DNA of 64,000 nucleotides from a virus, in the IMG/VR virus record IMGVR_UViG_3300030382_001297, positions 1-64,000 of that record; one strand, 5' to 3'. Numbering within the stretch: the stretch's first letter is position 1; every line of letters begins with the position of its first letter. Below, one piece after another: positions 3,207 to 64,000 of this stretch. The position numbers were made by a program, and so were the translations under genes. The notes below the pieces were generated by a model, which worked only from the letters and a program-made list of their open reading frames with translations, did not search any database and was not told the origin of the DNA.

Positions 3207-3926
3207 ATGGTATATTTCCTAGGAAGAGACGTAGATGTCTATATCTTTTGTGAAGCCCAAGCTACTACAGCTAATGGTACAATCGGGACTAGCGGAAGCG
3301 AGGCTGTGAACGGCGCAGCGACTTTAAGTCAAACGTTCGCCACAGCAATGGCTTCAGGTGGTTCTGCAAGTAACACCTTAGCAGATTTTGATAAGCAGAA
3401 TGATATAACAGGTATAGATGTAAGCACAGGAGTTATGGATGAAGATAATTCCTTTGTAGGCCAGATGCAAGCAGGAAAGGTGGAAATTAAGAAAGAAGTC
3501 ACCGTTTCGCTTACACGCAAGAAGAATAATAATTGTTGGGACGTTATATTTAACGGACCTATCAACAGCGGTTATATGGAGATAACTAGCCAAAAAGGTG
3601 GAGCACGATGGGGTCATGCCGACAACTCGTCCGCTTTAGCAGCTGGTTTAATCAATCCAAAAGATACGCGCGACATGAATAATACAGGTGGCGGTACAAA
3701 AATTGGATATGGTTATCGTGTAGCCTTAGTATTGAAGTCAGGTTCCGGGACAGACGGAACCACAGAGACAATGACAATACCCAACTGTGCATTAAATTCG
3801 TATTCTGTAACATTAGGTGCAGACGCAGTAGATGAGGAAACTCTAGAATTCGTAACTAATCAATCACCAAGATTCTCGATTGGTACCGAATATAACTACA
3901 CCCTTACGGACAAAACTGCATTTTAG
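3207..3926 (+). CDS. Major tail tube protein, paralog 1
   Basis: Upstream of chaperones and TMP; AGGAG RBS; paralogous to the next ORF (MVYFLGRDVDV; TGIDVSTGVMDED; PNC..SYSVTL.AD...EETLEF). Confidence 0.7.
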   Translation: MVYFLGRDVDVYIFCEAQATTANGTIGTSGSEAVNGAATLSQTFATAMASGGSASNTLADFDKQNDITGIDVSTGVMDEDNSFVGQMQAGKVEIKKEVTVSLTRKKNNNCWDVIFNGPINSGYMEITSQKGGARWGHADNSSALAAGLINPKDTRDMNNTGGGTKIGYGYRVALVLKSGSGTDGTTETMTIPNCALNSYSVTLGADAVDEETLEFVTNQSPRFSIGTEYNYTLTDKTAF

Positions 3927-3935: not shown

Positions 3936-4499
3936 ATGGTTTATTTTTTAGGAAGAGATGTGGATGTTGGACTGGCTACCGAATCGCAAACGATTGGTAT
4001 AACAGCAGCAGCAGACGCTCTTACAATAAGTGCCGCAGCCTCCGGAACAGCAGCGGCGACGGCTTCTGGAAGCACGTCATTTGATAACGTTACAGGTGTA
4101 GATTTATCTATCGGAGCAATGGATGAGGATATTTCTTATTTTGGTGTTCGTTCACAAACGAAAGCTGAGATTAAGAAGGAAACTACAGTCACAGTAACAA
4201 AGAAGAAGACAAACGATGAGTGGGATACTGTATTCAACAAGGCTCGTTTTGGTGTATCCGGAGCTAGTCAAGAATGGTATGGTTTAGAAGAACCCACCGT
4301 ATCGCACGGATATAGACTTTATATCCAATTAAAAAGTGGAAGTGAAGTATTTACAGTACCGAACGCTTGTGTACAATCACACACTACAACAATTAACGCA
4401 GACGGAACCCAAGAGGAAACTATTGAGTTTATGTCATACGTAACGCCACGCATAGGTACAACTGATTATACAGCTGCTACCAGTGGTGCAGCACTATAA
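3936..4499 (+). CDS. Major tail tube protein, paralog 2
   Basis: First 11 aa identical to 3207..3926, with shared core motifs. Confidence 0.7.
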   Translation: MVYFLGRDVDVGLATESQTIGITAAADALTISAAASGTAAATASGSTSFDNVTGVDLSIGAMDEDISYFGVRSQTKAEIKKETTVTVTKKKTNDEWDTVFNKARFGVSGASQEWYGLEEPTVSHGYRLYIQLKSGSEVFTVPNACVQSHTTTINADGTQEETIEFMSYVTPRIGTTDYTAATSGAAL

Positions 4500-11900: not shown

Positions 11901-14169
11901 CGGCGGATTCGCGTATGGGTCGGGAAATCATGGAACTGGTACTTTCTCAACAGATGGATGGACTCAAAAGGGAACTATTATGTTCCGAGCCATGTCAGGC
12001 ACTGCTGATGGTACTCAAGCTAGCACAGGAGGAATGTTCAGAGATAGTGGAAGTGGTGTAGTATCTAATTGGGCAAAAACTGTGAATTTTGCGTGTGCGG
12101 CACGCCTTGTGGGTATTCCTTCTTTTGACGAAGATTCACCTTATTTTGATTATAATGGTTATGCGGCGATTGTAGATAACCCTGAAATTTTTGATGAAGA
12201 CCCAGTAGGGACAAATACTTATAAATTTTTCACTCAGTTGGGTTATAGGGTTATTGATAATTTAACAGTTGGCTTTAATTCCTTTGATGACGATTACGGT
12301 GTTATGACCGACGCAATGATGACTGGAACGGCTGCTTATGCTTCAACAGAAACAACTCAAACTAATATTCCAGCAATAAGCCAAGATTTAAAACAGCGTA
12401 AAAAACGTGATAATGATATTATTTTCTTTGATACAAAGATAGACGCCTTTGTAAACAATACAATGATGCCTTATATGTGGATAAGTCCTAAAAAATACTG
12501 GCTCACCTTAGAAATGTGGCCCGGTCAAAGAACTGATGCAGATTCCAGCTTAGACCCATATCAAACTAGTGGTAAAGGAGATATATGGGCTTATGGAGGC
12601 AGCAACGATACTAAAACTTATGATAATATATGTTTATTAAACAGCAATATAGCGGATTTTACATGGACAACTGGTTCTACTTTTAATGAATTCAGATATT
12701 CCTATAATAGTGCAGATGCCACTACTGTCGGAAAATCAGCCCTATATCAGAATACATGGATGTTAGATGTAGGTGCACCAACAGAAAGTGATTTAGAGTT
12801 AGCAACTGATTTTGGCTTTGGGGCATTTAGTGAGGAAAATCAAACTGGAGGAGAAGCTGATATTAAAACTGCTTATCAAGACAGACCTTTAGTAATGGAT
12901 TATACTGCTGTGGCTAAAGAAGTCTCTCCAAAAGAACCCTTCTTAGCTACTCTTCAATTAAATAAACCTACTTCTAATCAGGCAATTATTACTTATGGTA
13001 ACGATTATACTCGTACGGTAACGGATGGTGACGATGCTACAGCAGATGATAGGAAACCTAGATACATTTTTGGTTATAGAGATACTGTTCCTGTTGTTAA
13101 AAATTTAACTGTAAATCCTACTATTAATGTTGTGGGTGGAGATACAAATTTATATGAACTTACTACCGAAAACCTTAATTCTATATCTTTCGAGTGGGAA
13201 GAAGAGGGTGAGGATATCTGGTATAGACTTTTAATGGTGGATAATACTCCTATAGTTAATAAATATACTAACGCTTTATGTTGGATTCCATTTAATGATT
13301 TGCCCGGTAGCAGTGCAGGATATGACCCTCAATATGGTCTAGTGGATGGTAAGGGTGCTTCAACTATTGATTTGTACGCACCATCAGTAAGTGGGACAGT
13401 TGACCCATCTAGCCAGTTAGCTGACCCATATGGACTTGCTTCCGACAGTTATGCACGCCAACGTATAGAAGGACTTGCCGGATATGCGTATTATATGCCT
13501 AACACTACGGGTAGTGATGGAACTAAATTAAATTTCTTCCCTATTGCTCATGCAACTAATGGATTAATGAACGATTCTTCAACTGAATATACAATGATGA
13601 TACATTGTAAACCAGAAAACAACGGGGCTCTCTTTTATAAAGGAAATACTAGTACAGGATTGAATGTTAAATTAGTATCAGGGAAGGTAGTAGTTTCAGG
13701 ACAGGCTGTAACTATGACAGGAACTTCAGTTAATCCTTTGGACGGACAAACTCCTTTAGCAGTTATGGTTACTTATAAGAACGGAAGTCAAATGCCTATG
13801 ACTCTCCATGTTAATGGTCAATTAGAAGACTATGTATCTTCAGGTAGTAGTATAGCCGATTTTAGTTCTACTGCTGTTGCTTATATTGGAAGCGCAGATG
13901 GTTCTGCTACTGACCAATTCAAAGGTTATATCGAAGAATTTATAGTATGGAAAAAACGTATTTATTCTCCAGAAATGCCCGGTTATTTTGAACTTAATAC
14001 AAAGGAATTAACGGAATATAACTCTGGTAATGCAGGTACAGCAGGAGCTTCTTTAACATATCCTCACCATGCAAAAGTATTCGCAATGGATTATTGTAAT
14101 ATTCGTGGAACTTCTACAGGTGAAGTAGGTAGTTCTAGTGATGTAGGATGGAGGACTACGATAGCATGA
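8935..14169 (+). CDS. Large tail/adhesion protein with C-terminal LamG/ConA-like domain
   Basis: 1744 aa, G/S/T-rich; C-terminal VMVTYKNG...LHVNGQL...YIGS...FKGYIEEFIVW. Confidence 0.7.
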   Translation: MSGIIPENNTFYRKNTISTSGAIKLNAHFKDLPESGTTTWDLKGGPNANRYVVEGEVPLPPNYGGGSLQNVYLESIVSGTDVSESSMLPTISTYKVKSGVTMLEGTGTQLSTQGSGGANLLVLARTIDKSLPWAEETFDGSEKSLGEVQVYGVPGGNTLLGENPYVEAEEACSRIYLGGDFSFFHIGEDVDGGSADFLRTYFGKQELVTSSTVVHVQTGQELESPKVTSAIRGNMKDRKIYIKPVNRKKPRGLWTARYDNRTGLNKFTVFKPIWKFSQLKSIIRFERNSALPNQQDTPQPVSKNNTIFNMGAQKTPSISNSWEGNPDGTGWCESWLELSTEEYEDGGQSLKMAHFWDDASENPATNNIYGSRYKINPQFTRICTDLGPMPAYLDQALASAQTGMAVVSGNQTLTAPEIDIKFKITKMGTALFVSGGTNATKYSVPNFTPGTSVDALKSVDVEDTTAPTTLLRSFTVTFSNGPPKDGESLDAFLVRTISGSYIASLRTPATGNVARERSGIVGGVTFVRYTNKAGHKKNCVTATPLLTECSFYEYPTYTGANTEYVQKNCLWFYKSGTNAGDSNYEDVQLVTMPYNLAVGSGGWSSNRSPADGGTTASTDEPSVQLSMDEWVNMKIVWHPNLKATANQTTGTASAIDIKSNGNPAARVYFTQGAYQDTGILTANDENTNTINTGDEKPPSFNLTFPCQIFPGGAALLARTRMSLGDLNNTSASPFDLDFTNIERQWPRYMTLWLQNYRYVKPGDAANKVWGQNNGGDSILTGEPLKVDSISPLSISVVSGSRESEVFVDSIAYRGFNGEISNVSAGASSFTKPLSIKDVAQKRYFSKGNNENSTDSLWAQEFPASEGARIETAYAPTYISIGYEDGTGSTFTGGTATNKENVMLWNGFSYAGAFSELAINDYRTTNAWFSTVTGAQDISNAAYSDTANLPAQLFRSLVNDTTAVSDDGKRGATYASELNINSQESSITRPGGFAYGSGNHGTGTFSTDGWTQKGTIMFRAMSGTADGTQASTGGMFRDSGSGVVSNWAKTVNFACAARLVGIPSFDEDSPYFDYNGYAAIVDNPEIFDEDPVGTNTYKFFTQLGYRVIDNLTVGFNSFDDDYGVMTDAMMTGTAAYASTETTQTNIPAISQDLKQRKKRDNDIIFFDTKIDAFVNNTMMPYMWISPKKYWLTLEMWPGQRTDADSSLDPYQTSGKGDIWAYGGSNDTKTYDNICLLNSNIADFTWTTGSTFNEFRYSYNSADATTVGKSALYQNTWMLDVGAPTESDLELATDFGFGAFSEENQTGGEADIKTAYQDRPLVMDYTAVAKEVSPKEPFLATLQLNKPTSNQAIITYGNDYTRTVTDGDDATADDRKPRYIFGYRDTVPVVKNLTVNPTINVVGGDTNLYELTTENLNSISFEWEEEGEDIWYRLLMVDNTPIVNKYTNALCWIPFNDLPGSSAGYDPQYGLVDGKGASTIDLYAPSVSGTVDPSSQLADPYGLASDSYARQRIEGLAGYAYYMPNTTGSDGTKLNFFPIAHATNGLMNDSSTEYTMMIHCKPENNGALFYKGNTSTGLNVKLVSGKVVVSGQAVTMTGTSVNPLDGQTPLAVMVTYKNGSQMPMTLHVNGQLEDYVSSGSSIADFSSTAVAYIGSADGSATDQFKGYIEEFIVWKKRIYSPEMPGYFELNTKELTEYNSGNAGTAGASLTYPHHAKVFAMDYCNIRGTSTGEVGSSSDVGWRTTIA

Positions 14170-17100
14170 GTTTAACATGGAAATCAGGGTCTTCAACAAC
14201 AACTTCAGCTACAGTTTATACAGATTTAACCGCAAATTTCACCTTTACTAATGATGATGTAAGAGCTTTATATATAGATTGGGGTGATGGACAAGACCCT
14301 GATGGAAATTTTACAACAAATAAAAAATATGCTAATTATCAATGGGTAGAATTTACCGAACCTACAGGAGCAGCTATAGTAAGACATACTTATACAGCTT
14401 CGGGTACATTTAATCCCGTTGTTCAAACCATTAATTCAGAGGGATTTGCGTCAGATTATTACAGCGCTGCCGCTTCAGGTCCTTCTCCTTTCAATCAGAG
14501 GGCTCAAATATCAGGAATGTCCTCTACAGATGGAGAAGCAACAGGAGTAATGAAAATAGAAAATAAAACAATGAATTCTGGTATAGATAATTCTCTTTTA
14601 GAAAGGGAAGGAGCTAAAGATTTATATGTTATTGTAGCTCCTTTAATAGCTTCAGGCAACTTAGACGTAATTAAACATATTAACTTAGACTTAACGGTAG
14701 AAGTAGCCACCACGATGGTAAGCGCTACTGATGCCACTACAGTAGCCGGAGCTGGTAGAAGAGTAGACGTGTTTAGTGTTACTATAAGTGGTAGTAGTTT
14801 ATATGACGGAAGTGGGGCTACTGCTATTGATTTATCAGAAGGACAGTGTGCTCGACTCTTAAAGGTAGAATATAAAAATCCCAAACTCACCATTGAAAAC
14901 ACTAGTGGCGGTATTAATTCAGGTTCAACTTATGACGATTACACAAAAAATAATCTCTTTAATTTTCTTAAAATATTTATTGTAGCGAAGAGTGATGAAA
15001 CTCACGATGAAGGTGGTGCTGATGTAAACAATTATTATCCTCTTACTTATGTTACAGCGGGTTCTCCTATAAAAAGTACAGATGAGCCCGAAAGATATTC
15101 TGTTTTAGATTTTTCTCAAAGTAGGGCTAAAGCCTCAAATGTAGATTTGGCCTTTAGTCGCTATGATATAGGTAAAGTGTGGTTTAATCCCGCTTTTCAA
15201 TGGAATGCTATAACAGGAGCAACTAGTGGAGTATATGAATTTTTTGGGAGCAACACTAGTGGGGCAATTTCAGGTAATATAGGCACTACTAAGCAAGTCT
15301 CTTATACCTATGGAAGTACACGCCCTGATGGGCTTAATGGAGAATACTATGTAGGAGCTACTACTACTCCTAGTATAGCATTTGGTAATGATGCAGATGC
15401 TCATTGGGGCATGGCTGACCAGAAATATAGAATGGACCAGTTCTTAATAGATGAATTTGGTAGATTCACAGACCAATACCATTTAACTAGAGTATCAGTA
15501 CAACCTTCTCAGAGTTCTGTTTCTGAGACAGGAAGCGAAGTAAGCTCAATTAGTAATAACAAACCTCATGCGTTCTGGATGCAGCCGGCCTATCAATGGA
15601 CAGGAGCTTCAGCTGCAAATAGAGAGAAGTCTATATGTAAGATTAATAATGGAGTTGGTGGTGGTGTTCCCGGTGGAGCTACTATGAATTATACTGAAGA
15701 GGCTTTCCAAAACGGTTCTGCCAACCTTGTTTCAATTAGTGGTATGAACAGTGCAGACTATGAATTTGCTGATGGCAGTGATAGAACGACTGATTCTGAC
15801 CCTATCCAATATTTCCTATTACTTTTCACCGGAACCACAAATAAGGTATTTTTCAATATATCTAATTACGGTAATCAAATTATTAATTCTTATCTTTCAG
15901 GAACTTCTTTTACTGACAGCGTCGGTATAGCTGACGTTTCTTATTTACATATAGAAAAATCTGGCACTATCCATCAGAATGTACAGTGGAAATCAGTGCC
16001 TTTCGAGGATACTACTAAAGTAACTCTCCCTTTTAGAGACACCACTAATCAGAAATATATAGACCAAAGTAATTCTTTATCACAATCTGGGTTTGTTCAC
16101 TTTGATATGCCTTTGGATTGGGATAAGGCTAGTTTAACTGATTTGTATGGGGGGGTCGAACCCAACTCTGCATATACTGTTACAGGTACTAGATTACTAT
16201 TAACAGGAGCTTGTGGTACTTCTGCTACTGGTGGAGCAGGTACTGGTGACCAGAACCCAGTTACTCTAAACGCAGATAGTCAAACTTTAGTTGAGACTAC
16301 AAACAGCCTTTCCGATAATAATATAGGGGCTTTTAAATATATATGGGTTACAGAAGGCGGCCCCGGAGCTCAGAAAGGAAGAGCTTATTGGGTTGCTATG
16401 GGGCTTTCTAATGGTTACACTGGGTCTAGTGGTATAATGAATTTACATTATGGAGATACAACCAATGCTATAGAACCTAATGGTACTATCACTGGGTCTC
16501 TACGTAGGATTAATGTTTATGATATACTTACAGGATACAGTAAGGTTTTCCGAGGAGACTCGGCTACTGAGTTATGTCCTGTTGATTGTACCGCAGAATT
16601 TGAGAATGATTTAGTTTTCCATGATGTTACTTCAGGTGCGGAACAAGATTTATATGATGCTTGGAAGGCGGACCAGTTATATGCTTTGAAGATAGGTGTA
16701 AGTGGTACTGTAGGAGCTCATACGTTCCCTAATATATGGAACATCTTTGATGGAAATCAAGGATATGAGGATATTATTACTGAGATAGATGATTCTGCGT
16801 GGAACCTTAATTCTTTACCCATTGTTAGTGATATAGGAGTTACACGACAAGGAGCTTATTATCAAGCTATGACTAGGAAAGGTAAGGTTTTTATTGCTAG
16901 AACTGGAGATGTTATGACTACTCTAGGATTTAGTAGTGTAGCTTTGGGAGACGGAACTCGATTAAATACAGATGGTACGAAACGTGCGTTTACTGATGAA
17001 GGAGGAAGCAGCACCGGACCTTATGGTACTACTAACAGTCTTTATCAACAGCTACATAAGATTAGAAAAATACAAGCTAATAATGTCCCAGTCTATTGGG

Positions 17101-17309
17101 ACTTACAACAAAAAGATGGCACCTTTGTTAGATTCTGGGGGATAGTAACAACTGTTAATGAAACATATGGAACAGGCGGCTCACAGAATGTAGTAGGATA
17201 TAATTTTGATATGAGTATTACTAAAGTAGCTCTTATAGACGCAAATAGTACATTAATGACTGATGTATTCCCACTAGGAGGCGTAGAAGATGCCAAAAAT
17301 TTCACCTAG
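14148..17309 (+). CDS. Tail protein with N-terminal PKD domain and possible distal-tail-like C-terminus (likely start 14166)
   Basis: PKD motif IDWGDG...HTYTASGTFNPVV; lies before the hub gene. Confidence 0.65.
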   Translation: MEDYDSMSLTWKSGSSTTTSATVYTDLTANFTFTNDDVRALYIDWGDGQDPDGNFTTNKKYANYQWVEFTEPTGAAIVRHTYTASGTFNPVVQTINSEGFASDYYSAAASGPSPFNQRAQISGMSSTDGEATGVMKIENKTMNSGIDNSLLEREGAKDLYVIVAPLIASGNLDVIKHINLDLTVEVATTMVSATDATTVAGAGRRVDVFSVTISGSSLYDGSGATAIDLSEGQCARLLKVEYKNPKLTIENTSGGINSGSTYDDYTKNNLFNFLKIFIVAKSDETHDEGGADVNNYYPLTYVTAGSPIKSTDEPERYSVLDFSQSRAKASNVDLAFSRYDIGKVWFNPAFQWNAITGATSGVYEFFGSNTSGAISGNIGTTKQVSYTYGSTRPDGLNGEYYVGATTTPSIAFGNDADAHWGMADQKYRMDQFLIDEFGRFTDQYHLTRVSVQPSQSSVSETGSEVSSISNNKPHAFWMQPAYQWTGASAANREKSICKINNGVGGGVPGGATMNYTEEAFQNGSANLVSISGMNSADYEFADGSDRTTDSDPIQYFLLLFTGTTNKVFFNISNYGNQIINSYLSGTSFTDSVGIADVSYLHIEKSGTIHQNVQWKSVPFEDTTKVTLPFRDTTNQKYIDQSNSLSQSGFVHFDMPLDWDKASLTDLYGGVEPNSAYTVTGTRLLLTGACGTSATGGAGTGDQNPVTLNADSQTLVETTNSLSDNNIGAFKYIWVTEGGPGAQKGRAYWVAMGLSNGYTGSSGIMNLHYGDTTNAIEPNGTITGSLRRINVYDILTGYSKVFRGDSATELCPVDCTAEFENDLVFHDVTSGAEQDLYDAWKADQLYALKIGVSGTVGAHTFPNIWNIFDGNQGYEDIITEIDDSAWNLNSLPIVSDIGVTRQGAYYQAMTRKGKVFIARTGDVMTTLGFSSVALGDGTRLNTDGTKRAFTDEGGSSTGPYGTTNSLYQQLHKIRKIQANNVPVYWDLQQKDGTFVRFWGIVTTVNETYGTGGSQNVVGYNFDMSITKVALIDANSTLMTDVFPLGGVEDAKNFT

Positions 17310-18625: not shown

Positions 18626-20491
18626 TTAAATCTCACATTTGTCGCCCATACAAGCATACTCAGCTTTTCCTTGAGTATTGTCATTCATTTCGTATTTCGA
18701 CAACTGTCTATAATCTATTCGGGGTAGCTTCTTTATAAGCCTTTCGTAGGTTCTATGGTCGATTTCCTCATAAGGGGCCAATTTATAATGTCCTCCATCG
18801 TAAGGTAGGAAGGAAACTCCGTTAATGATATCCCAGTTTTGATATACCCAATTACCTACTTCAAACCATTCATCATCTCTGACGTATACAGTCATACTAG
18901 CATTATGTTCACACCAGTTATGTTGTAAGTTTTTATAATGTTTTAATTGGTCTAACGCAGTTACATCCTTTCGAGTTATACAATTTTCAGGAGATTTAAC
19001 AGGAAATTCTAATACCCAAGTAGAAACATTCCTTTTAGTCTGTCCATTTTCAGGATTACATTTTATCCCTGAGTCCTTCATTAATTTAAATAAGGGGTCT
19101 CTGTCTGCAATTCTATAGCGTCGGATGTAGTAATCTGACCAACGTGGATGTACTCCACTAGAAGAATCTACTAATTGTGAAACTGTGCCTGAAGGCTTGA
19201 CACAAGTAGTGGCAGATGGCATCTTTGTACCGAGGATACTCGAAGCTTTGCGAGAAATGCGTAAAACGCGGCTTTTAAGGGCCTTTAAAGCCTCCGAAGT
19301 CATCAAGGTGGGGTTATCCATCTGTCCGGTCAAACTAACGCCTAGAAGCGCTTCTATGTCACAATTCTTTTTCCAGCCTTCTCTAAGGTATGGAAAGTAG
19401 GTAAATGAGCTCTGTATAACACCGAGCCATGTAGCAGTCTCTACCTTATCTAAAAGGGTATCTAAATTATCCTCTGCTCTAACAACCACTTCGCTTAGGT
19501 TACAGAACTCCATATCTCTAAGCATTATCTCACCACAAGGGTTAGTACCCTGTATTAATGGAGCATATCTGCGTGATGGAGCTTTGCTCTGTGCAGCTTG
19601 GAGATTAAATATACCTCTCTCTCCTGTGCCTGATAGAGCTAATTCTGCCCATTCTTTTAGAAATTGTCCTGCTGAGGGCTTTTCTCTATATATAGCGCTA
19701 TTGTTTGCCATAGCACGTTTAATAGGGAAAGGCCACTCTTTTGCATGACGCATGTCTTCATCATCAAGGCCACTCAAAGAGATTTGTGAGCTGCGTCTAA
19801 CTCCACCCACTACCACGATTTCAGCAATTTGATTACAAATATCATGAGCTTCCAACGTTGTGAGCTTTCGACCTTGGGCATTATGCATGGTTTCACGAAT
19901 GAAATCATGTAACTTAATAAGAGGAGCTGGACCTGAGGCACGACCTCCCATAGTGCGTAAGCGAGCTCCCTCTGGTCTAATTTGAGAATAATCAAAATGT
20001 ATGTTTTGACCATCATATAAATTTTGCATGAGCATCTTCACAGAGTCTGACCATCCAGCTTTGGAATCAAAGATAGGGATTTTGTCTAACGCTCTCCCCG
20101 ATTTAATTTCCGGAATATCCGGAAGTTTATCCACTTCTTCCTTCTCTACTGAAAAACCAAAGCCAGTCCCACACATTAGGATGTAAAGACACTCGGCAAA
20201 AGCTTCAACACAATTTATTTTAGTAAAGGAGCAGTTATAAATGCATGTGTTATCAAACTTAGCAGCTGGTCCTGCTGCCCATAAAAATCTCATTGACGGC
20301 ATTACGCCGAATTCTTTCATGTACTTTCTAATTTTATTAACCGTTTTCTCAGGTATCTCTGGCCTCTCTGAATAGATGAAATCTAAAAATCTCTCTATGG
20401 TTTCGGGCCACTCTTCTCTTCTTTTATCCTCATCAATCCAACGAGAATATGTTCTCTTATATATAAATTCTGCTACTTCGTTTTTAAACAT
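18626..20491 (-). CDS. nrdJ: Class II (adenosylcobalamin-dependent) ribonucleotide reductase
   Basis: RTYSR, PSMRFLW, TNPCGEI, FCNLSEV, TTCVKPSGTVSQL and a C-terminal CxxxxC pair; no beta subunit present. Confidence 0.92.
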   Translation of the reverse strand: MFKNEVAEFIYKRTYSRWIDEDKRREEWPETIERFLDFIYSERPEIPEKTVNKIRKYMKEFGVMPSMRFLWAAGPAAKFDNTCIYNCSFTKINCVEAFAECLYILMCGTGFGFSVEKEEVDKLPDIPEIKSGRALDKIPIFDSKAGWSDSVKMLMQNLYDGQNIHFDYSQIRPEGARLRTMGGRASGPAPLIKLHDFIRETMHNAQGRKLTTLEAHDICNQIAEIVVVGGVRRSSQISLSGLDDEDMRHAKEWPFPIKRAMANNSAIYREKPSAGQFLKEWAELALSGTGERGIFNLQAAQSKAPSRRYAPLIQGTNPCGEIMLRDMEFCNLSEVVVRAEDNLDTLLDKVETATWLGVIQSSFTYFPYLREGWKKNCDIEALLGVSLTGQMDNPTLMTSEALKALKSRVLRISRKASSILGTKMPSATTCVKPSGTVSQLVDSSSGVHPRWSDYYIRRYRIADRDPLFKLMKDSGIKCNPENGQTKRNVSTWVLEFPVKSPENCITRKDVTALDQLKHYKNLQHNWCEHNASMTVYVRDDEWFEVGNWVYQNWDIINGVSFLPYDGGHYKLAPYEEIDHRTYERLIKKLPRIDYRQLSKYEMNDNTQGKAEYACMGDKCEI

Positions 20492-20556
20492 TTTTTACCA
20501 CTCCTTTTGCGGTTCATTACTATAGGTTTAGCCCCTATAAAAGGCTTACTACAAAC

Positions 20557-20667
20557 TTATTTATAGTCTATTAAAACACGGTGACCACAAGTGCAATCCT
20601 CGTCGGTGTTGCACTTGCATTCACTTACTGATGATAGTGTCCCAGTAAAGCTTCCTAGCTTTACCAT
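20557..20667 (-). CDS. 36-aa Cys-rich microprotein resembling the capsid N-terminus
   Basis: MVKLGSFTGTLSSVSECKCNTDEDCTCGHRVLIDYK; ATG overlaps the upstream stop (TAATG); below the ORF-track cutoff. Confidence 0.65.
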   Translation of the reverse strand: MVKLGSFTGTLSSVSECKCNTDEDCTCGHRVLIDYK

Positions 20668-20843
20668 TAAAGTGGGGCACCATCTTCATCGCAGACAACG
20701 TCTGCGTAATAACCTGTAGGGATAATATCACTTTTCTTAATTGTCATAAGCTCTCGCTTCTGTAATTCCTTATTAAATCTCCTAACTGTTACCATTGGTA
20801 CTGAAGGCTCAGCCTTCTTTTTTGTTGCTTTTTTTGCTGCCAT
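20667..20843 (-). CDS. Small basic hypothetical protein
   Basis: MAAKKATKKK...; AGGTGA RBS upstream. Confidence 0.6.
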   Translation of the reverse strand: MAAKKATKKKAEPSVPMVTVRRFNKELQKRELMTIKKSDIIPTGYYADVVCDEDGAPL

Positions 20844-20852
20844 CGTTTTCAC

Positions 20853-21005
20853 CTATTGAACTGGAACAACTCTTCCGTCTTTGTATCTTCGTACTAAAAC
20901 CCCTGTTGGAGTCATATCTTCTACAAAGTCGCTTGAAGGGTCTACTTCTTTTTCCACCACTACGGGTGCTTCTTTCTTAGCTGCTTCCTTTTTATCTTTT
21001 GCCAT
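20853..21005 (-). CDS. 50-aa hypothetical protein
   Basis: MAKDKKEAAKKEAPVVVEKEVDPSSDFVEDMTPTGVLVRRYKDGRVVPVQ; tightly packed in the operon. Confidence 0.55.
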   Translation of the reverse strand: MAKDKKEAAKKEAPVVVEKEVDPSSDFVEDMTPTGVLVRRYKDGRVVPVQ

Positions 21006-21007
21006 GA

Positions 21008-21172
21008 TTAATCACTTTTCCTGCTACGTCTAGCGTTTTTCTTTTTCTTCATTTTGTTCGTTGAACGTTCTGGAAGTTTACTCCCCTTCGGAGTCTCCTT
21101 CTCCCATCTCTTCGCCATCTCCGGCTTCTTCTTGTACATCCAACGTCTCTGTGCTTTGCTCTTGAACGGCAT
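21008..21172 (-). CDS. 54-aa highly basic microprotein (MPFKSKAQRRWMY type)
   Basis: GGAGG just upstream; overlaps the 3' end of 21078..21452 in another frame. Confidence 0.65.
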   Translation of the reverse strand: MPFKSKAQRRWMYKKKPEMAKRWEKETPKGSKLPERSTNKMKKKKNARRSRKSD

Positions 21173-21452
21173 CTTCCTCCGGTGTTATCTCCTTGATGTA
21201 TAGTTGCCAGTCTTTGACTAAGTCATTAGATTCCAAGAACTGTTGAAGGATTGTATTGTTTTGTTCTAACGCTCCTCTAAGTTCGTTTATATGACTGTCA
21301 GCACCTTGCATTCTTTCACCAAGTTGTCTGGTTTGCGTAACTAGGAAATTCATGTTATCCATAGTTTGCGCTGGTCCTGAGTTATTCTCAAACTCTTTTA
21401 TCCATTTCTCTACGTCGTTCAAACGCTTATCTACTCTTTTTAATGTTGCCAT
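21078..21452 (-). CDS. Coiled-coil hypothetical protein
   Basis: 124 aa with heptad pattern; GGAG RBS. Confidence 0.6.
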   Translation of the reverse strand: MATLKRVDKRLNDVEKWIKEFENNSGPAQTMDNMNFLVTQTRQLGERMQGADSHINELRGALEQNNTILQQFLESNDLVKDWQLYIKEITPEEDAVQEQSTETLDVQEEAGDGEEMGEGDSEGE

Positions 21453-21465
21453 TGTTCATTTCTCC

Positions 21466-22533
21466 TTAGGCACACCCACATTTTTCAGTGCATATACCAA
21501 GTTGTATTAACTTATCCCTTGAATACCTATTTAAAGCTTTCGACCTAATTAGCTCTATTTGCCGTCCTGCGACGTTTGGGTCGTCAGTATACCAACCATA
21601 ATCTCCTGCTGGTTCATTGTAGATACTGTTGAAGATAAAGTAAATGTCTCGATTGCTATAAGCTGCTGTTATTAGCTCAGTAGCAATTATGTTATTATGT
21701 TCGTGACTGCTATGTCCACGCTCTATATTAAGCTCTATTAGCTTCATTATACATCCCCTTAAAGGCTTTATATAATCATTGCTTATATCAGAGCCTATCT
21801 TAATAGAGCCTGATGCCTTCTCTATTTCATTCAATAAATAATCTATACTATTAGATACTGTATGTTTTATTTCTAATGTATCACAAATAAATTCTACAAA
21901 ATTACGTTGTGCTTTTTTACTTTTCTCTGGAGGTATGGTTGTACCATTATCTTCTTGAGCTAAAGCATACAGTTCTTCTATACTCATTTTCATTATATTA
22001 TCTACAGAAAACTGAGTACACCAAACACCAGTAGGCTCTCCTGTAATCTTAGATATATAAGGTGTGTTAACTATACGTCTCATACAGGACACACTGTTGT
22101 TTATACATATCTCATCTAGTGTTGAAAGGTGGTATTTCTTTTTAAGATGTAAAAGATATTCCTTGATTGACTTACGTTTAAGATGGTCAGGTAAATCTAC
22201 ATAGGTCCAGAAATCTATATTCATCTGAAATCCTTTTCCTCCCGTTAAATATATACGTGGAGTTATCCCTAATGGTTTACAAAATCTTCTTATGAATTTT
22301 CTAACATCCATAAGACATTTCTTAACGTCTTTATTATGGTCAAAGTCAAACCATATGGTATTAAGGACCGCAGATTCATATTTTGATTTTCCATCTTCTT
22401 TCTCTTCTGCGAAAACATATACACTAGAATAACAGTTTTTCTTTCCGCTATACTTCTTTACTTGCTTTTCGATGTCTTCGACTGTTTTGCACTTTGCGAT
22501 TCTTGCTGGGATTCCAAATTCTCTATAATACAT
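21466..22533 (-). CDS. Archaeo-eukaryotic primase: PriS-like catalytic domain fused to a PriL-CTD-like domain
   Basis: WFDFD and YLTGGKGFQ motifs; Cys-containing C-terminus (RGCI...LGICTEKCGC). Confidence 0.78.
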   Translation of the reverse strand: MYYREFGIPARIAKCKTVEDIEKQVKKYSGKKNCYSSVYVFAEEKEDGKSKYESAVLNTIWFDFDHNKDVKKCLMDVRKFIRRFCKPLGITPRIYLTGGKGFQMNIDFWTYVDLPDHLKRKSIKEYLLHLKKKYHLSTLDEICINNSVSCMRRIVNTPYISKITGEPTGVWCTQFSVDNIMKMSIEELYALAQEDNGTTIPPEKSKKAQRNFVEFICDTLEIKHTVSNSIDYLLNEIEKASGSIKIGSDISNDYIKPLRGCIMKLIELNIERGHSSHEHNNIIATELITAAYSNRDIYFIFNSIYNEPAGDYGWYTDDPNVAGRQIELIRSKALNRYSRDKLIQLGICTEKCGCA

Positions 22534-27421: not shown

Positions 27422-27792
27422 CTATCGTCGCCATCACCCTTTATGGTGTCTTTCACCATGCGTTGATTGAGTTTGTCTATATTGTTTATCATAACGTCAT
27501 AGAAAGTTATTCCTAGTACGTCTAATATGCGTGTGTAGTACCATAAAACATCTCCTAACTCAGACTCCATCGCCTTATTAAAATCTTGTACTACCATCAT
27601 ATCTCCTCTAAGATGTTTCTTAAATTTTCCTAGTACTTCACCCACTTCATTTGCTAGCCCTATCATTAGGTATTCCATTTCTACTTCTTTAGGATACTGG
27701 GCTGTAGTTCTTGTGAACTCTTTATATGTTTCTTCCCATCCTAGATTGATAGTCATGCCCTGTGGCTCTTTCTTCTTTTCTTCTTTCACCAT
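27418..27792 (-). CDS. MazG-like NTP pyrophosphohydrolase
   Basis: GLANEVGEVLGKFKKHLR, ELGDVLWY, NIDKLNQR...IKGDGDDR. Confidence 0.88.
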   Translation of the reverse strand: MVKEEKKKEPQGMTINLGWEETYKEFTRTTAQYPKEVEMEYLMIGLANEVGEVLGKFKKHLRGDMMVVQDFNKAMESELGDVLWYYTRILDVLGITFYDVMINNIDKLNQRMVKDTIKGDGDDR

Positions 27793-28106
27793 ATGTTCAT
27801 CTCCTCTGGTATTATATCTCTATTTAAAATCCATTTTCTCTCTGTTGGTAAATATCTATGTACTAAATCAGCCTTGTGTTCTGCTTGTACCACCCACGGC
27901 TTAACAAGTATAAGGTCTCTTTCTCTTACCCACATTCTCCTTTTAAATTTACCACCTATTCTAACCATGCGTATCTTTCCATCTTCACACATAGCTAAAA
28001 GTCTCGAACCCCCAGACATCTCACGGACAACAGCGAACTGTTCATTTTTCACTGGTAATTTAACCTTTCTTGTAATGTGTCCTGATGGCTTTGGTTTCTT
28101 TTTCAT
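27786..28106 (-). CDS. eif1a: Translation initiation factor 1A (aIF-1A/eIF1A family)
   Basis: KLPVKNEQFAVVREMSGGSRL...CEDGKIRMVRIGGKFKRRMWVRERDLILVKPW...KADLVHRY; start probably 28106 (track gives 28124). Confidence 0.9.
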   Translation of the reverse strand: MKKKPKPSGHITRKVKLPVKNEQFAVVREMSGGSRLLAMCEDGKIRMVRIGGKFKRRMWVRERDLILVKPWVVQAEHKADLVHRYLPTERKWILNRDIIPEEMNIW

Positions 28107-29532
28107 TGTAATCTCCTTCTGCATTTAATAGAAAGGACTCGTAGTCCTTAATCTCTGAATCCCGTTTGGTTTTAAAAACCTTTGGGTAATCCATTTTCTC
28201 TACTTCTGTGGCTTTCTTTGCTCTCGAACCCAACTCAACGTTGTCGCCAGTAAACGGGTCAACAATTTTAATATCGCTACAAAAGCGCCCATTGTACTCG
28301 CTAGCCACGGTAGTCCAGTTCTCTGCCATAAACTTTTTTGTTTCTTCAACTAACTCACTCCATTTTATTTTTGCCACTGGTTCGTCTATCAGTGGACTTT
28401 TGTAATACATACGCTTACCCTTTTCATCATCCATCTCTAAGAACCCTGTCATAACTAAACCCATTAAGATAGGGTCCAGTTTAGTGAAAGGTAGTCCTAC
28501 AGCCTTAGCCGCTTTCTTTATCTCATTGGTAGACATTCTTATTGTCTCTCCATCTGCAAAACCAAATCTATCTAATCTTGTGTCAGGAAACAACTTAAGT
28601 ATGTCTGTTCCATGAGCTGGCATATGTAAACATTCTTCTACAAAGGAATTAAGATATATACGCAACCCTAACCAATTATGTTTAGGTGTTACCATTCCAT
28701 ATTCAATTCCATCTCTTTCTACCTTCAGTATCTCATCAGGATAGAACCTCGCAACTGCATTAATTAATTTTAATAAGTATTGAACCTTTGACCTTGATAC
28801 AGGGAAGGCACTAGGGATTGCATCAAACAAAAAGGGTGCGCAGGGATTCTTAAGCTTAATAGCCTTCTCTTCATCTCTGTTCACAATCACATCTAATATA
28901 TGTCTGCGTAAGCCCTCTATCTCTTCATCATCCATAGTAGTCATGTCTGACATAGGAGAAGCGGCTTCTTTCAGTTTATGTTTGATTACTCTCTCTGTCT
29001 GTATCACAGTAGGGTTAGTATGCATTATCATACATCTACGCTCCAACTCTGCGTCGAAATAAGCTGAACCCTTTGTGTTCTCTACTGCCACACACATAAA
29101 GACATACTTAGGATTCAGTGTTTGTTTTACTGTTTCTCCTATTGTTATATCTGTTTTCTTTCTGAAAGCGGCTCTATTATCACCCCAAGTCTTTATCACT
29201 TCCATAATTCCTTCGGGTAACTTTTGAGCTTCTGGTATAGCTACAAATCTTGAACGATTAATTTTGTCAGACTCATACCATACTGCTGTCTCAGACATAT
29301 GTTCTATTGTGTGATAGAACTCATCAGGCAACAGACCAAAGATAGCATCCATGATGACTGTCTTACCTGTGCCCGAATAAGCTTTAATAACAAAGTTAGT
29401 ATCTTCTAAAAGATATGATAAACATGCTGTTAAAGCTGTTGCATCCTCTCCTAAGATAGGATTAAGGTCTCCTTTCCTATTCTTTACATTGTGGAAATAT
29501 CTTGTTAAATCATGAACTTCATATTTTTTCAT
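28060..29532 (-). CDS. P-loop AAA+ ATPase, putative replicative helicase
   Basis: Walker A AYSGTGKT, ELERR arginine-finger-like motif, C-terminal winged-helix-like segment; lies in the replication module. Confidence 0.6.
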   Translation of the reverse strand: MKKYEVHDLTRYFHNVKNRKGDLNPILGEDATALTACLSYLLEDTNFVIKAYSGTGKTVIMDAIFGLLPDEFYHTIEHMSETAVWYESDKINRSRFVAIPEAQKLPEGIMEVIKTWGDNRAAFRKKTDITIGETVKQTLNPKYVFMCVAVENTKGSAYFDAELERRCMIMHTNPTVIQTERVIKHKLKEAASPMSDMTTMDDEEIEGLRRHILDVIVNRDEEKAIKLKNPCAPFLFDAIPSAFPVSRSKVQYLLKLINAVARFYPDEILKVERDGIEYGMVTPKHNWLGLRIYLNSFVEECLHMPAHGTDILKLFPDTRLDRFGFADGETIRMSTNEIKKAAKAVGLPFTKLDPILMGLVMTGFLEMDDEKGKRMYYKSPLIDEPVAKIKWSELVEETKKFMAENWTTVASEYNGRFCSDIKIVDPFTGDNVELGSRAKKATEVEKMDYPKVFKTKRDSEIKDYESFLLNAEGDYNEKETKAIRTHYKKG

Positions 29533-46626: not shown

Positions 46627-46794
46627 TTTGCGACCTCTTTATCAAGTCCCAACTTTTGGGCCTCTATTGCCTCGTAAATTTCGAGGGTGTGACTCATCGG
46701 TAATTTAAACCGACGGCTGGCTTTCCTGAAACGGAATTCGTTTCTTAAAATGTTTTCTTTGAAGCTCATTTTTTCTCTCTAATTCTACTCTAAC

Positions 46795-48558: not shown

Positions 48559-48577
48559 TTTAAAAATTTGCATGTCT

Positions 48578-60609: not shown

Positions 60610-61929
60610 ATGTCAATAATTGATAGAGTGCGAAGAAGGTTCGCAAATGTGGGGGCTAATCCCCCTTTCAAAGAGAACGACCCACGAGATTTCGGAGCAG
60701 GTGTCATTAAAAGACTCAAACTTCAAAATAACGGTTACAATGTAAGAGGAAAAGGAGATTTTGAACCACATATAGGTGCTCCACGTACTTATATGAATGT
60801 TTATTTACAAGACCCTGTTGTAAGAACATTAATAGACCTTCCATGCTTTTATGCTGTAAAAGATAACTTTGATATAGTAACAGAAGATGATGGTGTCCGA
60901 GATACTATCGAAGAGATGTTCAGAGATATAAATATTGAACAAACTATATATGGTTGGGTAAGAAACGCCCGTGTTTTTGGTACGGGTTATCTGGAGTGGA
61001 CTGGAGACAACTTAGTTCTTCGTTCTAGCCAAAACATGTACGTTAAGAGAAACGAGCATGGACAAATAATGTATTATTATCAAGATGTCGGAGATGATAA
61101 AGAAAATATCAGATTTGAAGAAGATGAGATAATAGAACTTAAAAATAATCCCTTTGACGATTATGCATATGGTTTATCTGATATACACCCTATAATGTAT
61201 CTGATAGACTTAAAAGATTATGCAGAAAGGGATATAGGAGCCGCACTTAATAAATATGCGATATCAAGATTTGATATATCTTGCGGTCTACCTGATATGC
61301 CCTATGGCCCTGATAAGATTAATGAGGTTGTAGACGCTTTTAATAATTTAGCACCCGGTGAAGATATAATTCACGGCAATGATATAGCTATTAAAGAATT
61401 AGGTGGAACACAGAGAGCATTTGAGTATGGAAAATATACTGACGATTTACTGGCTAAAATACACATGGCTTTAAAGGTTCCTTTAACTATGTGGAGCGAC
61501 CCTGAAAAGGCTCGTCCCATATTTGAGCCATATGTTAATTATTTACAGTCTGCGATAGAAGGTGCATTAAATGCACAGTTGATGCCTCAATTAGAATCCG
61601 GCGAAGCTAAATTTAGATTCCGAGCCGTTAATATAGATGATGCATTTACTAAAGCTAAGACAGACATGATATATTTATCTGAAGGCGTACTCTCACCCGG
61701 CGAAGTTAGAGAAGAACGTGGTCTTGACCCTGAAGGAGTTGTAGAATTAGATATGGAAACTTCTGAAGATGTTAAAGCATCACCACTCGAAGGTGGACCC
61801 GGTAAAAAGGAGAGCAGTAAGAACGCTAACATATCTGGAGGAAAAGATACAGATAAAAAAGAAGAGAGTGCGAGAGCACCAAATAGGGGAAACAAACCCT
61901 CCGCTAACGCGACAGGAGATAGAAAATGA
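60610..61929 (+). CDS. Portal protein
   Basis: Follows TerL; RNARVFGTGYLE, YGLSDI, ALKVP, GVLSPGEVREERGL. Confidence 0.88.
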   Translation: MSIIDRVRRRFANVGANPPFKENDPRDFGAGVIKRLKLQNNGYNVRGKGDFEPHIGAPRTYMNVYLQDPVVRTLIDLPCFYAVKDNFDIVTEDDGVRDTIEEMFRDINIEQTIYGWVRNARVFGTGYLEWTGDNLVLRSSQNMYVKRNEHGQIMYYYQDVGDDKENIRFEEDEIIELKNNPFDDYAYGLSDIHPIMYLIDLKDYAERDIGAALNKYAISRFDISCGLPDMPYGPDKINEVVDAFNNLAPGEDIIHGNDIAIKELGGTQRAFEYGKYTDDLLAKIHMALKVPLTMWSDPEKARPIFEPYVNYLQSAIEGALNAQLMPQLESGEAKFRFRAVNIDDAFTKAKTDMIYLSEGVLSPGEVREERGLDPEGVVELDMETSEDVKASPLEGGPGKKESSKNANISGGKDTDKKEESARAPNRGNKPSANATGDRK

Positions 61930-63191
61930 CGTACGAAAAATGTAAGACAACCGTAAGTGCAACACTAAAAAAGCGTGGTTTTGATAACCACAGCAATATG
62001 GCAGCTAGCATGTGTTCCATGTGGGCTGAGGAGAATGGTGTCGAGCGGGAATTTGCAGGAGAAACCGACAGAGTTGCTACTCAACGTACATTCGCTATTT
62101 CCCTTGAGGGAAATTCCGACATGACATTTAATAGCGATGAGGGGGTTGATTCTGTAACTTTCCCTGTGATAGCTATTACTTCTGGTCTCCATAAGTATAT
62201 GGAAGACGAGATAAACAAAAAGGTTTATATAGAACCGACCATCTTAAAAGATAGTATAGAGAAGTTCTCAGAGCTTCCTATATATATTAATCATCAACGA
62301 ACGCCTGAGGATTTAATCGGCATGGCTACTGACCCTGAGGTAATAGAATTGAAAGATGGAAAATATGGAATGCAAATGAAAGCTACTGTTAGTAACAAGA
62401 CAGGACACGGACAAGAAGTGATGAATAAGGTCAAGGACGGGGATATGACTCACGTTAGTATTGATTGGTTCTCCAATGATATTGACGTTATGGGTGACAC
62501 ATACGCCACCAAGTTACGTCCCACAGAGGTAAGTTTCATTGACAATGAAAAAATGGACCCCGTCTGTAAGGAATGTACGATAGGAAAGGAATGTAGTTTA
62601 CATGAGGCTAGTGACGACCACGACTGTGGTTGTGGTGGCACTGAAGGTTCATGTGAATGTGAAGACGGGAAGACAGAGGTCAAAACTATGACAGAAGAAA
62701 AAGTAGAAACCAATGTGAAATCCGATGCAGAGAACATTGTTGAACGCGAATTCGCTTCACTACGTGCTCAGCTGGAAGAGTTGAATGCTTCTAAAACGGA
62801 AGTCGAATCCCAGTATGCTGATGCTTTAAAACAAATTGAAGCATTTAAGCTCGCTGAGGAAGAGAGAGCCGCAAAGGAAGCTGAAGCAAGAAAGCTAGAG
62901 ACTATTGAAACGATTATATCCAAGGAAGTTCTTTTCGGCACAGTCGAAGAGGAAAAGAAGGATGCACGCGTTGAGGAACTATCTGCTTGGGATGAACCAA
63001 GGCTGACTGGATTCAGCGACGCATTAAATGCAATGCCTGTCCCAGAAGTAGACACAGAGAGACAATTCGGAAAAGGAAAATCCAATGACGGAGAAGCTCC
63101 AGCTGCTGAAGAGACAGAAAGGCAATTTAGTGTAGAATTAATAAAAGATGGGCAAGTAAGGCTCAACAAAGAATTACTAAGAGGTAATTAA
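61926..63191 (+). CDS. Prohead protease / scaffold fusion
   Basis: PIYINHQR..DLIG, VSIDW, EVSFID; Cys-rich linker; coiled-coil C-terminal half. Confidence 0.8.
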   Translation: MTYEKCKTTVSATLKKRGFDNHSNMAASMCSMWAEENGVEREFAGETDRVATQRTFAISLEGNSDMTFNSDEGVDSVTFPVIAITSGLHKYMEDEINKKVYIEPTILKDSIEKFSELPIYINHQRTPEDLIGMATDPEVIELKDGKYGMQMKATVSNKTGHGQEVMNKVKDGDMTHVSIDWFSNDIDVMGDTYATKLRPTEVSFIDNEKMDPVCKECTIGKECSLHEASDDHDCGCGGTEGSCECEDGKTEVKTMTEEKVETNVKSDAENIVEREFASLRAQLEELNASKTEVESQYADALKQIEAFKLAEEERAAKEAEARKLETIETIISKEVLFGTVEEEKKDARVEELSAWDEPRLTGFSDALNAMPVPEVDTERQFGKGKSNDGEAPAAEETERQFSVELIKDGQVRLNKELLRGN

Positions 63192-63193: not shown

Positions 63194-63583
63194 ATGGCAA
63201 CAGAAATATTAGTAAATGACGGTGGTGCACCAGCAAGAATTTTACCATTCACAGCTGGCAGCACAATTACCGCAGGATACCCTGTGCAGATGGGAGCAGA
63301 TGCAGAAATCGACCAGAACACAGTGGCAAACGGCAAACCACTAGGTTTTGCTTTGACCACGGTAACCAGCGGAAACGTAGCAAGTATTATAACAGGTCAC
63401 GGTATTGTAATCAATGCGTACTGCTCTGGAACTATTGGACGAGGAGACGGTGTAGCTACATTAGCTGACGGTAACCTAGGACAATCTTCCGCAGTAGCTA
63501 ACTCAATCGGTTATTACATCGACCCAAGTGGTGCGCACTCAGGTGCAGCTACATTACAACGTATACTGTATCAGGGGCTATAA
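63194..63583 (+). CDS. Capsid decoration/cement protein
   Basis: 129-aa G/A/T-rich protein between protease and MCP; FTAGSTITAG, PLGFAL. Confidence 0.65.
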   Translation: MATEILVNDGGAPARILPFTAGSTITAGYPVQMGADAEIDQNTVANGKPLGFALTTVTSGNVASIITGHGIVINAYCSGTIGRGDGVATLADGNLGQSSAVANSIGYYIDPSGAHSGAATLQRILYQGL

Positions 63584-63597: not shown

Positions 63598-64000
63598 ATG
63601 GCAGCATTAAACTCAAATTTAGCACCCGGTGTACTGACGACCCTAAATACAGGAGCGGCAGATGGCGGCGTGGGCGAACGTGTACTTATTGACTATAAAG
63701 ATGCAATTCAGGACTACAAAGTTGTAGACCTACCTGCATTGTCAATGTTCTGCGACCCTATGACTACAGACACCGGCGGTGATATTGATATCACCTTCGC
63801 AAAACCCTCAATGGGTATGGAAGAAATCAACGAAGGAAACACTCCTAAGTACCAACACACCAACTTACGCTCCGAGAGAGTGTCCGTTGATGAGTGGGGA
63901 CTTGCAGTAGGTGTAACCCGAAGAATGATAGAAGACTCAAGATTCAACGAAGTAGAAATGGCTTTGAACGAAGCACGAAGAGCAGTTGATAGACACGTTA
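63598..64000 (+). CDS. Major capsid protein (HK97 fold), 3'-truncated by the window end
   Basis: AGGAG RBS; EEINEGNTPK...VDEWGLAVGVTRRMIEDS; frame open to the window end. Confidence 0.85.
   Translation, partial: MAALNSNLAPGVLTTLNTGAADGGVGERVLIDYKDAIQDYKVVDLPALSMFCDPMTTDTGGDIDITFAKPSMGMEEINEGNTPKYQHTNLRSERVSVDEWGLAVGVTRRMIEDSRFNEVEMALNEARRAVDRHV

Follow-up and report, generated by a model that had tools for sequence, protein, structure and literature searches.

Within the window analyzed here, a stretch of 64,000 nucleotides that corresponds to positions 1 to 64,000 of the IMG/VR virus record IMGVR_UViG_3300030382_001297 (complete record, 72,517 bases), a gene of only 36 codons plus a stop codon (20557-20559) is located at positions 20557..20667 on the minus strand. 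We are confident that its product, hereafter called the micro-protein, is a selected, free-standing copy of the N-terminal arm (the first ~34 residues) of the same virus's major capsid protein (MCP), which is encoded about 43 kb away. We further predict that the micro-protein works by occupying the docking site of the arm in head assembly, a proposal that we hold with slightly less than even confidence. Taken as one statement, namely that a selected arm copy acts in trans at the docking site of the arm, the proposal is in our judgment evenly balanced between right and wrong.

The open reading frame (ORF) and its TAATG coupling to the gene upstream had been pointed out in an earlier note made from the sequence of this DNA. 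Both are confirmed, the product has the 36 residues quoted there, and the strand, which had not been given, is the minus strand. The reading of the product as a mimic of the capsid N-arm, also put forward in that note, finds support in the sequence and in the selection acting on it, while the functions suggested alongside (a regulator of assembly or size, a cargo-docking peptide, or a sensor decoy) are candidates between which the data do not discriminate.

Design of the micro-protein and of the capsid arm

The MCP gene begins at position 63598 on the plus strand, where the N terminus reads as the earlier note had quoted it. Its first 134 codons lie in the window (63598..64000), and the gene extends to genome position 64665, encoding 355 amino acids. 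Its assignment to the HK97 fold was confirmed both by Pfam (Phage_capsid_4, E = 4.5e-10) and by Foldseek, in which the SU10, Patience, and HK97 capsids were the best matches of an AlphaFold2 monomer model (mean pLDDT, 70). The alignments define residues 1-34 of the MCP (63598..63699, plus strand) as the arm that served as template of the micro-protein. Residues 1-30 have a pLDDT below 50 and are unmodelled in the monomer, as one would expect of a flexible, assembly-dependent element that orders only in the lattice.

Two blocks are shared by the arm and the micro-protein. Block 1, residues 9-15 of the micro-protein (GTLSSVS; 20623..20643, minus strand), matches MCP residues 11-17 (GVLTTLN) and has the consensus G-[LI]-L-[TS]-[TS]-L-S. 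This pairing had already been proposed, and it is clearer in the relatives, where MGLLTSLS in the micro-protein stands against G-LLTSLN in the MCP. Block 2, residues 28-36 (G-H-RVLIDYK; 20560..20586, minus strand), constitutes the C terminus and matches MCP residues 26-34 (G-E-RVLIDYK). The blocks are joined by a variable middle, residues 17-27 (CxC-x5-CxC; 20587..20619, minus strand), which stands where the MCP has a Gly-rich spacer. This replacement, likewise noted before, is visible in the alignment of the micro-proteins as well as in the hhalign comparison described below.

We identified 37 distinct variants of the micro-protein, ranging from 19 to 39 residues, with the family consensus M-G-LLTSLS-R-CxC-x5-CxC-G-K-RVL[IT]D[YF]K. 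The corresponding set of MCP N-arms comprises 96 MCPs with 41 unique arms (80 of 419 MCP relatives were kept) and follows the pattern M-x(3-9)-G-[LIV]LT[ST]LNTG-(Gly-rich spacer)-G-E-RVL[IV]DYK, G11, R28, L30, D32, and K34 being invariant among 40 MCPs. The longer micro-variants match the very start of the arm too (M-[VP]-x-L-S-x-N-[LF]-A-x-G versus M-V-A-L-S-D-N-L-A-P-G in the MCP).

Every variant retains both arm-like blocks. Between them stands CxC-x(3-9)-CxC in 30 of the 37 variants and a Cys-free, Lys-rich linker in the other seven (L024, L033, L038, L039, L041, L030, and L031). Because the cysteines can be absent and yet both blocks are kept, the Cys module appears to be a connector and not the core of the function. 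The CxC-x5-CxC knuckle probably binds a metal. The family differs from zinc ribbons and zinc knuckles, which have four Cys/His ligands in all members, in that seven of its 37 variants are devoid of cysteine, and it has no Pfam match. The C terminus coincides exactly with the end of the motif in 25 of 35 variants, while nine extend by one residue and one by five.

Statistical support for the resemblance

The heptapeptide RVLIDYK, described in the earlier note as identical in the two proteins, indeed occurs exactly twice in the six-frame translation of the window, in the micro-ORF and in the MCP. As proof of likeness, a single 7-mer was nevertheless rejected, since in an all-against-all comparison such sharing is within chance for this window: an exact 7-mer is shared by 13 pairs of the 910 stop-to-stop segments, compared to 6.7 ± 2.7 expected from 100 residue shuffles. 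For the micro-peptide alone, 0.3% of 2000 shuffles matched anything. The case was therefore moved to family profiles.

Using hhalign, the 35-member alignment of the micro-proteins was matched to the MCP N-arm alignment with a probability of 97.4% (P = 1.4e-11; score, 47.6), columns 1-38 of the former covering columns 1-35 of the latter. When compared to 40 full-length MCPs, the same alignment mapped to MCP residues 1-39 (95.2%; E = 2.6e-8). As controls, 200 column-shuffled micro profiles reached scores of only 5.8 ± 1.5 (maximum, 10.7), and the reversed profile scored 6.7. Similarly, a hidden Markov model (HMM) built from the 41 unique MCP N-arms and run against 17,107 six-frame segments (484 kb) placed the MCPs at ranks 1-4 and the micro-ORFs at ranks 5-38 (best micro-ORF, E = 2.9e-5), the micro-ORFs being the sole other strong matches. 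In the reciprocal search, the weak matches of the micro HMM included all four MCPs then in the set. Across the 72.5-kb genome, the N-arm HMM found the MCP and the micro-ORF only and no other protein with the motif, and two scaffold-like head proteins of 421 and 129 amino acids were absent among the matches of both the arm and the micro HMM.

A neighbouring 50-amino-acid protein had been considered as a further arm look-alike on account of the stretch GVLVRRYKD; it was absent from the HMM matches and was dropped. Separately, in an 81-kb relative (L014), a Lys-rich small ORF located 512 nt upstream of the ribonucleotide reductase (RNR) gene (~1840-1990, plus strand) ends in RVIISYQ. Its likeness to the C-terminal motif, some micro-variants ending in ...SYQ, may be due to chance or may mark a second tagged protein.

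Conservation of the micro-gene and selection

Relatives of the micro-gene were found by using two neighbouring genes as anchors, a gene encoding 355 amino acids and the RNR gene. The former led to eight IMG/VR loci; in each of the six that cover the interval, a small ORF built on the same plan occupies the syntenic position. The RNR gene led to 55 loci, 44 of which include the RNR start together with upstream sequence. In 43 of these 44 loci, a micro-ORF lies upstream of RNR on the same strand, and the 44th (L048) offers only 123 nt of upstream sequence. The distance between the two genes is usually 50-250 nt and reaches 1970 nt at most.

Among 27 unique 84-nt cores, pS was 0.675 and pN was 0.268 (pN/pS, 0.40), and the variability at codon positions 1, 2, and 3 amounted to 0.233, 0.165, and 0.377, respectively. 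A pN/pS of 0.40 together with third codon positions that are the most variable indicates purifying selection in this frame. The 36-codon ORF is thus a real, selected gene.

The 36-amino-acid protein matches no PHROG family at E ≤ 0.01 (phrog_1823 included) and no Pfam family. A profile search of 1.84 billion proteins returned 15 clusters at E ≤ 0.001, all of them of 30-94 amino acids. In two of these, the public proteins P0001 and P0002, a Lys-rich small protein (MAAKKK...) is fused in frame to the micro-protein, which is then followed by a tail; that of P0002 resembles translated intergenic DNA preceding the RNR gene. The two may be genuine fusions, may owe their form to a changed stop codon, or may be artefacts of gene calling.

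Codon usage and tracking of the cognate capsid protein

The 18 contigs carrying both genes gave 16 unique micro/MCP pairs. The two members of these cognate pairs have the same residue in 177 of 420 aligned columns. At the 169 identical residues for which more than one codon is possible, the same codon is used in just 53 cases, approximately the number expected from the codon usage of the genome. In block 2, the third-position identity between micro-gene and MCP gene is 0.44 (one of the 16 rows, that of L014, comes from an unrelated ORF). In the window itself, the synonymous differences listed in the earlier note (GGT/GGC, GTT/GTA, TTA/CTT, and ATA/ATT) are all correct, and its preference for protein-level selection over a recent DNA duplication is upheld by the count across the pairs. 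Codon identity that does not exceed codon-usage expectation implies that the likeness is old and acts at the protein level and that it is not refreshed by gene conversion. Gene conversion from the 5' end of the MCP gene, considered as a source of the resemblance or of the tracking described next, is ruled out on the same grounds.

The N-terminal block of the micro-protein tracks the MCP of its own genome, with a mean of 8.25 for cognate pairs versus 4.55 ± 1.22 upon permutation (p = 0.003; 16 pairs). In the same pairs, the length of the micro N-block correlates with the length of the MCP arm (rho = 0.82). In one lineage, a short, spacer-poor arm (MVTAKEGLMSSNLSSTANRVLVDYK) is paired with a 20-residue, Cys-free micro-protein (MVLTSNSSKKPVKRILVDYK). 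We regard this tracking of the cognate MCP as suggestive.

The head module

The head genes are found on the plus strand, ~43 kb from the micro-gene, in the order large terminase (58851-60563), portal (60610-61929), 421-amino-acid protein (61926..63191), 129-amino-acid protein (63194..63583), and MCP. We take the order of the last three to resemble a protease/scaffold, decoration, MCP arrangement.

The 421-amino-acid protein, encoded between portal and MCP, is scaffold-like (phrog_2932, scaffolding, E = 4e-4; Pfam Phage_scaffold, E = 1.1) and represents a candidate partner of the N-arm. Its look-alike clusters in the atlas carry Peptidase_S78 in 36-37% of their members or Mu-like_Pro in 11-16% (score, 0.93; 149-163 shared features), an atlas lead according to which it is possibly a protease-scaffold. 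A sequence search of the PDB with this protein gave nothing useful, and neither Pfam nor PHROGs revealed a prohead protease among the ORFs in and near the head module. The second candidate partner, the 129-amino-acid protein directly upstream of the MCP, matches phrog_673, "head scaffolding" (E = 1.6e-5), a label that conflicts with its below-cut-off similarity to Pfam phage cement proteins (E = 0.015-0.019; Phage_cement_2, E = 0.015).

Right after the MCP gene lies a gene for a protein of 1,932 amino acids (L161 1749-7547, that is, genome positions 64748-70546), which consists nearly entirely of collagen triple-helix repeats (Pfam Collagen, E = 2.2e-155, in seven stretches) and which may be a very long virion fibre or decoration protein.

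Genomic setting of the micro-gene

The ATG of the micro-gene overlaps the TAA of the upstream ORF, which encodes a Lys-rich small protein of 61 amino acids (20667..20852, minus strand), forming the sequence TAATG. Downstream, the conserved neighbour is the class II RNR gene (18626..20491, minus strand; identified by Pfam and PHROG), 65 nt away in this genome. The minus-strand operon around the micro-gene encodes a family-B DNA polymerase, an eIF-1A-family factor, an ATP-dependent ligase, a glycosyltransferase, the RNR, and a MoxR-type AAA+/VWA pair. It is a module of the replication type in a tailed virus that looks archaeal; the virus is marine and probably archaeal. Neither blastn of positions 20300-21500 nor tblastn of the MCP gave a match in a collection of named phages, and the label "magrovirus" is unconfirmed.

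Two members of this operon deserve mention. The virus-encoded translation factor of the eIF-1A family is located at 27786-28124 on the minus strand (Pfam eIF-1a, E = 1.3e-15). On the same strand, a MoxR/CbbQ-type AAA+ ATPase and a protein with a VWA domain (CobT_C-like) are paired at 38509-40653 and 41015-42319 within the replication-side operon; the two look like a chaperone-type pair.

Near-identical DNA for positions 19800-21500 was detected in marine and hydrothermal-vent metagenome runs. Fourteen run rows, from eight studies, contain at least half of the sampled words of this interval, and one of these studies is possibly the source of this DNA. Contigs from RNA libraries span parts of the micro-ORF (X16, 20391-20604; X15, 20614-20785) and provide neither strand nor level. 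Another RNA-library contig (X17; 863 bases) stems from a relative that is ~90-95% alike in the flanks and in which the 160 bases containing the micro-ORF (20504-20665) are exchanged for 150 others, a pattern that fits a faster divergence of the micro-gene DNA than of its neighbours.

At 50981-52558 on the plus strand, a protein of 525 amino acids fuses a radical-SAM/SPASM enzyme to an FkbM-type methyltransferase. The micro-protein had been considered as a precursor of a ribosomally synthesized and posttranslationally modified peptide on which this enzyme would act. This candidate was rejected for want of co-occurrence, as the radical-SAM/SPASM part is present in this genome only among 20 records, and two genomes estimated to be 90% complete (G008 and G009) encode Cys-containing peptides and have no match to the 525-amino-acid protein. 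The methyltransferase half alone was matched in three other records of the 20, and the match contains TAG in two of these three.

Elsewhere in the window, runs of shared 7-mers revealed two adjacent paralogous genes on the plus strand, at 3207-3926 and 3936-4499 (239 and 187 amino acids), which share MVYFLGRDVDV, as well as a stretch that is repeated at ~46760-46860 and 48357-48560 (plus strand) in the gene-poor region of 46.7-48.5 kb. A further run is shared between minus-strand frames inside the gene at 14148-17309, pointing to an internal DNA repeat.

Predicted mode of action

The N-arm of HK97-fold capsids is the element that scaffolding proteins hold on to, and it also contributes to the contacts between subunits. 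As the micro-protein retains only the conserved contact blocks of the arm, it should bind in trans where the arm itself would usually dock. This site could belong to an adjacent capsid subunit or to the scaffold or protease-scaffold protein, and the micro-protein would in that case be an accessory or a regulator of head assembly. It might cap the arm-docking sites on unassembled subunits until assembly nucleates, it might compete at the scaffold, or it might fill the sites that are left vacant around the portal vertex, where the portal replaces a penton. Its expression from an operon of replication genes suggests that the micro-protein is probably present before, or alongside, the MCP. A complex prediction from the MCP and micro alignments returned a score of 0.00 and, having been run without controls, was counted neither for nor against binding.

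Several points weigh against an arm copy acting in head assembly. The binding to the site of the arm is a prediction from sequence, its partners are candidates, and residues 1-34 of the MCP may be either kept or lost in the mature head. Modelled alone by AlphaFold2, the micro-protein has a pLDDT of 56, no secondary structure, and no confident fold. Its gene sits in the replication module, away from the head genes, a location that would suit a regulator or a decoy equally. Its transcription is only weakly indicated, because the RNA-library contigs are strandless and may reflect DNA carry-over. The earlier note had expected the ORF to persist in close relatives and its motif to follow the sequence of each MCP. 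The first expectation held (43 of 44 loci) and the second was borne out in part: the N-terminal block does follow its MCP (p = 0.003), but the permutation test for the whole peptide is marginal (p = 0.053), and block 2, which is near-invariant in both proteins, displays no residue-level co-variation, RILTDYK in the micro-protein occurring with RVLIDYK in the MCP, and RVLIDYK with RVLVDYK. Furthermore, the test on the N-block and its length was chosen post hoc, the 16 pairs stem from ~5-6 lineages, and there are exceptions to the tracking, namely L012, in which the micro-protein is short and the arm long, and L051, in which the micro-protein is long and the arm short.

Alternative explanations

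The micro-protein could instead be directed, as a decoy or an antagonist, at a host factor by which the N terminus of the MCP is recognized, such as an immune sensor, a protease, or a chaperone. Made early, it would occupy this factor before the MCP appears. The location of the gene in an early, replication-type operon and the fact that the conserved blocks of the arm alone are retained are both in line with such a role, and there are immune proteins of prokaryotes, among them Avs7 and Dsr1, by which phage MCPs are sensed, as described in the available part of PMC13581612. However, the MCP sensors dealt with in that part recognize the whole MCP, and no MCP-derived decoy appears there. In addition, nothing in our data points to a host partner or sensor, and the arm motif is almost invariant among MCPs sharing 53-100% identity, which looks like the mark of a constraint on structure and not of an arms race. 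We thus consider a decoy unlikely.

The HK97 protease cleaves its MCP after a lysine. A prohead protease could likewise remove residues 1-34 of the MCP by cleaving behind the Lys of DYK, in which case the micro-protein would be a free copy of the released propeptide, acting on the protease/scaffold as a product-like regulator or serving as a mini delta-domain in trans. The 25 variants out of 35 that stop exactly at the last residue of the motif would be explained by this possibility, whereas the 10 variants that run on for 1-5 residues would not. A prohead protease has been reported in magroviruses, according to the accessible part of PMC5434244, and the Peptidase_S78 and Mu-like_Pro domains among the look-alikes of the 421-amino-acid protein offer a lead in the same direction. 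In contrast, Pfam and PHROGs found no protease in the head module, and processing of the MCP is hypothetical. A propeptide mimic is, in our estimation, as improbable as a decoy.

A third possibility is that the micro-protein is a packaged internal peptide, the arm-like blocks being a capsid-targeting tag by which the peptide, and in the fusions a Lys-rich DNA-binding segment, is docked to the inner surface of the capsid. The Lys-rich linker of seven of the 37 variants, the two public in-frame fusions to a Lys-rich protein, and the translational coupling to the Lys-rich 61-amino-acid protein would all be compatible with this, and the capsid targeting sequence (CTS) of T4 provides a precedent (PMC3012670, in the portion available). 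Yet the copy in the window has an acidic middle, with N-T-D-E-D between the Cys pairs, and is hence not a DNA binder. Moreover, the motif is limited to the MCP and the micro-protein and is not a tag common to several cargo proteins, and the fusions may stem from stop-codon variants or from gene calling, as the intergenic-like tail of P0002 suggests. This possibility seems to us a shade less probable than the two preceding ones.

Finally, an incidental resemblance, be it of a small metal-binding protein, a leader ORF of RNR, or a decaying duplicate of the MCP 5' end, is largely refuted and very improbable: one shared 7-mer is within chance for the window, most copies have four cysteines, and the ORF usually lies close to RNR, but the profile-profile match has clean shuffled controls and agrees with the reciprocal HMM search, the cysteines, unlike the arm blocks, can be dispensed with, the distance to RNR can be as large as 1970 nt, and a decaying fragment would hardly show purifying selection and keep its starts and stops in 43 of 44 loci.

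Relation to known systems and implications

An arm copy that acts in head assembly can be compared with three known systems. In HK97-type capsids, the delta domain, or capsid N-arm, is the N-terminal capsid segment by which the contacts of assembly are controlled. Precisely this segment of the MCP is the one to which the micro-protein is homologous, but unlike it, the micro-protein is a separate product of 36 residues, encoded 43 kb away in another operon, and a Cys knuckle stands in for the Gly-rich spacer.

In the 80alpha procapsid, the C-terminal helix-and-hook of the scaffold contacts the capsid N-arm, and CpmB of SaPI1 copies this motif and competes for the site, as described in the part of PMC5644958 at hand. 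CpmB and the micro-protein have in common that a small protein carries a copied short contact motif of capsid assembly, and the site of CpmB on an HK97-fold capsid involves the N-arm. However, CpmB copies the helix-and-hook (RIIK) of the 80alpha scaffold, is the product of a phage parasite, and redirects the size of the capsid (same part of PMC5644958), whereas the micro-protein copies the N-arm of the virus's own MCP, the copy constitutes the entire protein, and it is known here from sequence alone. Indeed, the copy matches the N terminus of the MCP and not the 421- or 129-amino-acid proteins, so that it differs from a scaffold-motif copy of the CpmB type.

The CTS of T4 is similar in that a short terminal peptide, common to head-associated proteins, directs them to the assembling head (PMC3012670, available portion). 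In T4, the CTS is common to several cargo proteins and targets the scaffolding core, as far as the same portion describes it. Here, in contrast, the motif is the arm of the MCP itself, the N-arm HMM finds it in the MCP and the micro-ORF only instead of in several head-internal proteins, and no cargo domain is attached. By function, the micro-protein would be closest to assembly-motif mimicry (CpmB versus scaffold) and to head-targeting tags (T4 CTS), while lacking the defining features of both.

In the literature searched, which comprised the papers themselves and not the supplementary gene tables of magrovirus papers, we came across no account of a capsid N-arm copied as a free-standing protein. 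There is a fair chance that the micro-protein belongs to a wider, undescribed class. One could go further and speculate that tailed viruses of archaea and bacteria share a class of "self-mimic" micro-proteins, that is, free-standing and separately evolving copies of the MCP N-arm that are supplied in trans for head assembly or head protection, an idea that is possible but that we find rather doubtful. Members of such a class might fill vacant arm-docking sites at the portal vertex or keep subunits assembly-incompetent until nucleation. The archaeal-type family presented here, in which a Cys-knuckle and a Lys-rich connector are interchangeable, would illustrate it best, since its proteins consist of the copy and nothing else.

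Capsid N-arms are moving parts that are gripped by scaffolds and that lock capsomers together. If it is true that a virus makes this arm a second time as a loose peptide, head assembly would be subject to a form of control or completion that is absent from current models. The family, being short, conserved, and defined by two blocks, makes this easily testable. It would also mean that genes of 20-40 codons, which escape gene callers, can have a working role in the morphogenesis of virions among uncultured, abundant viruses of the sea.

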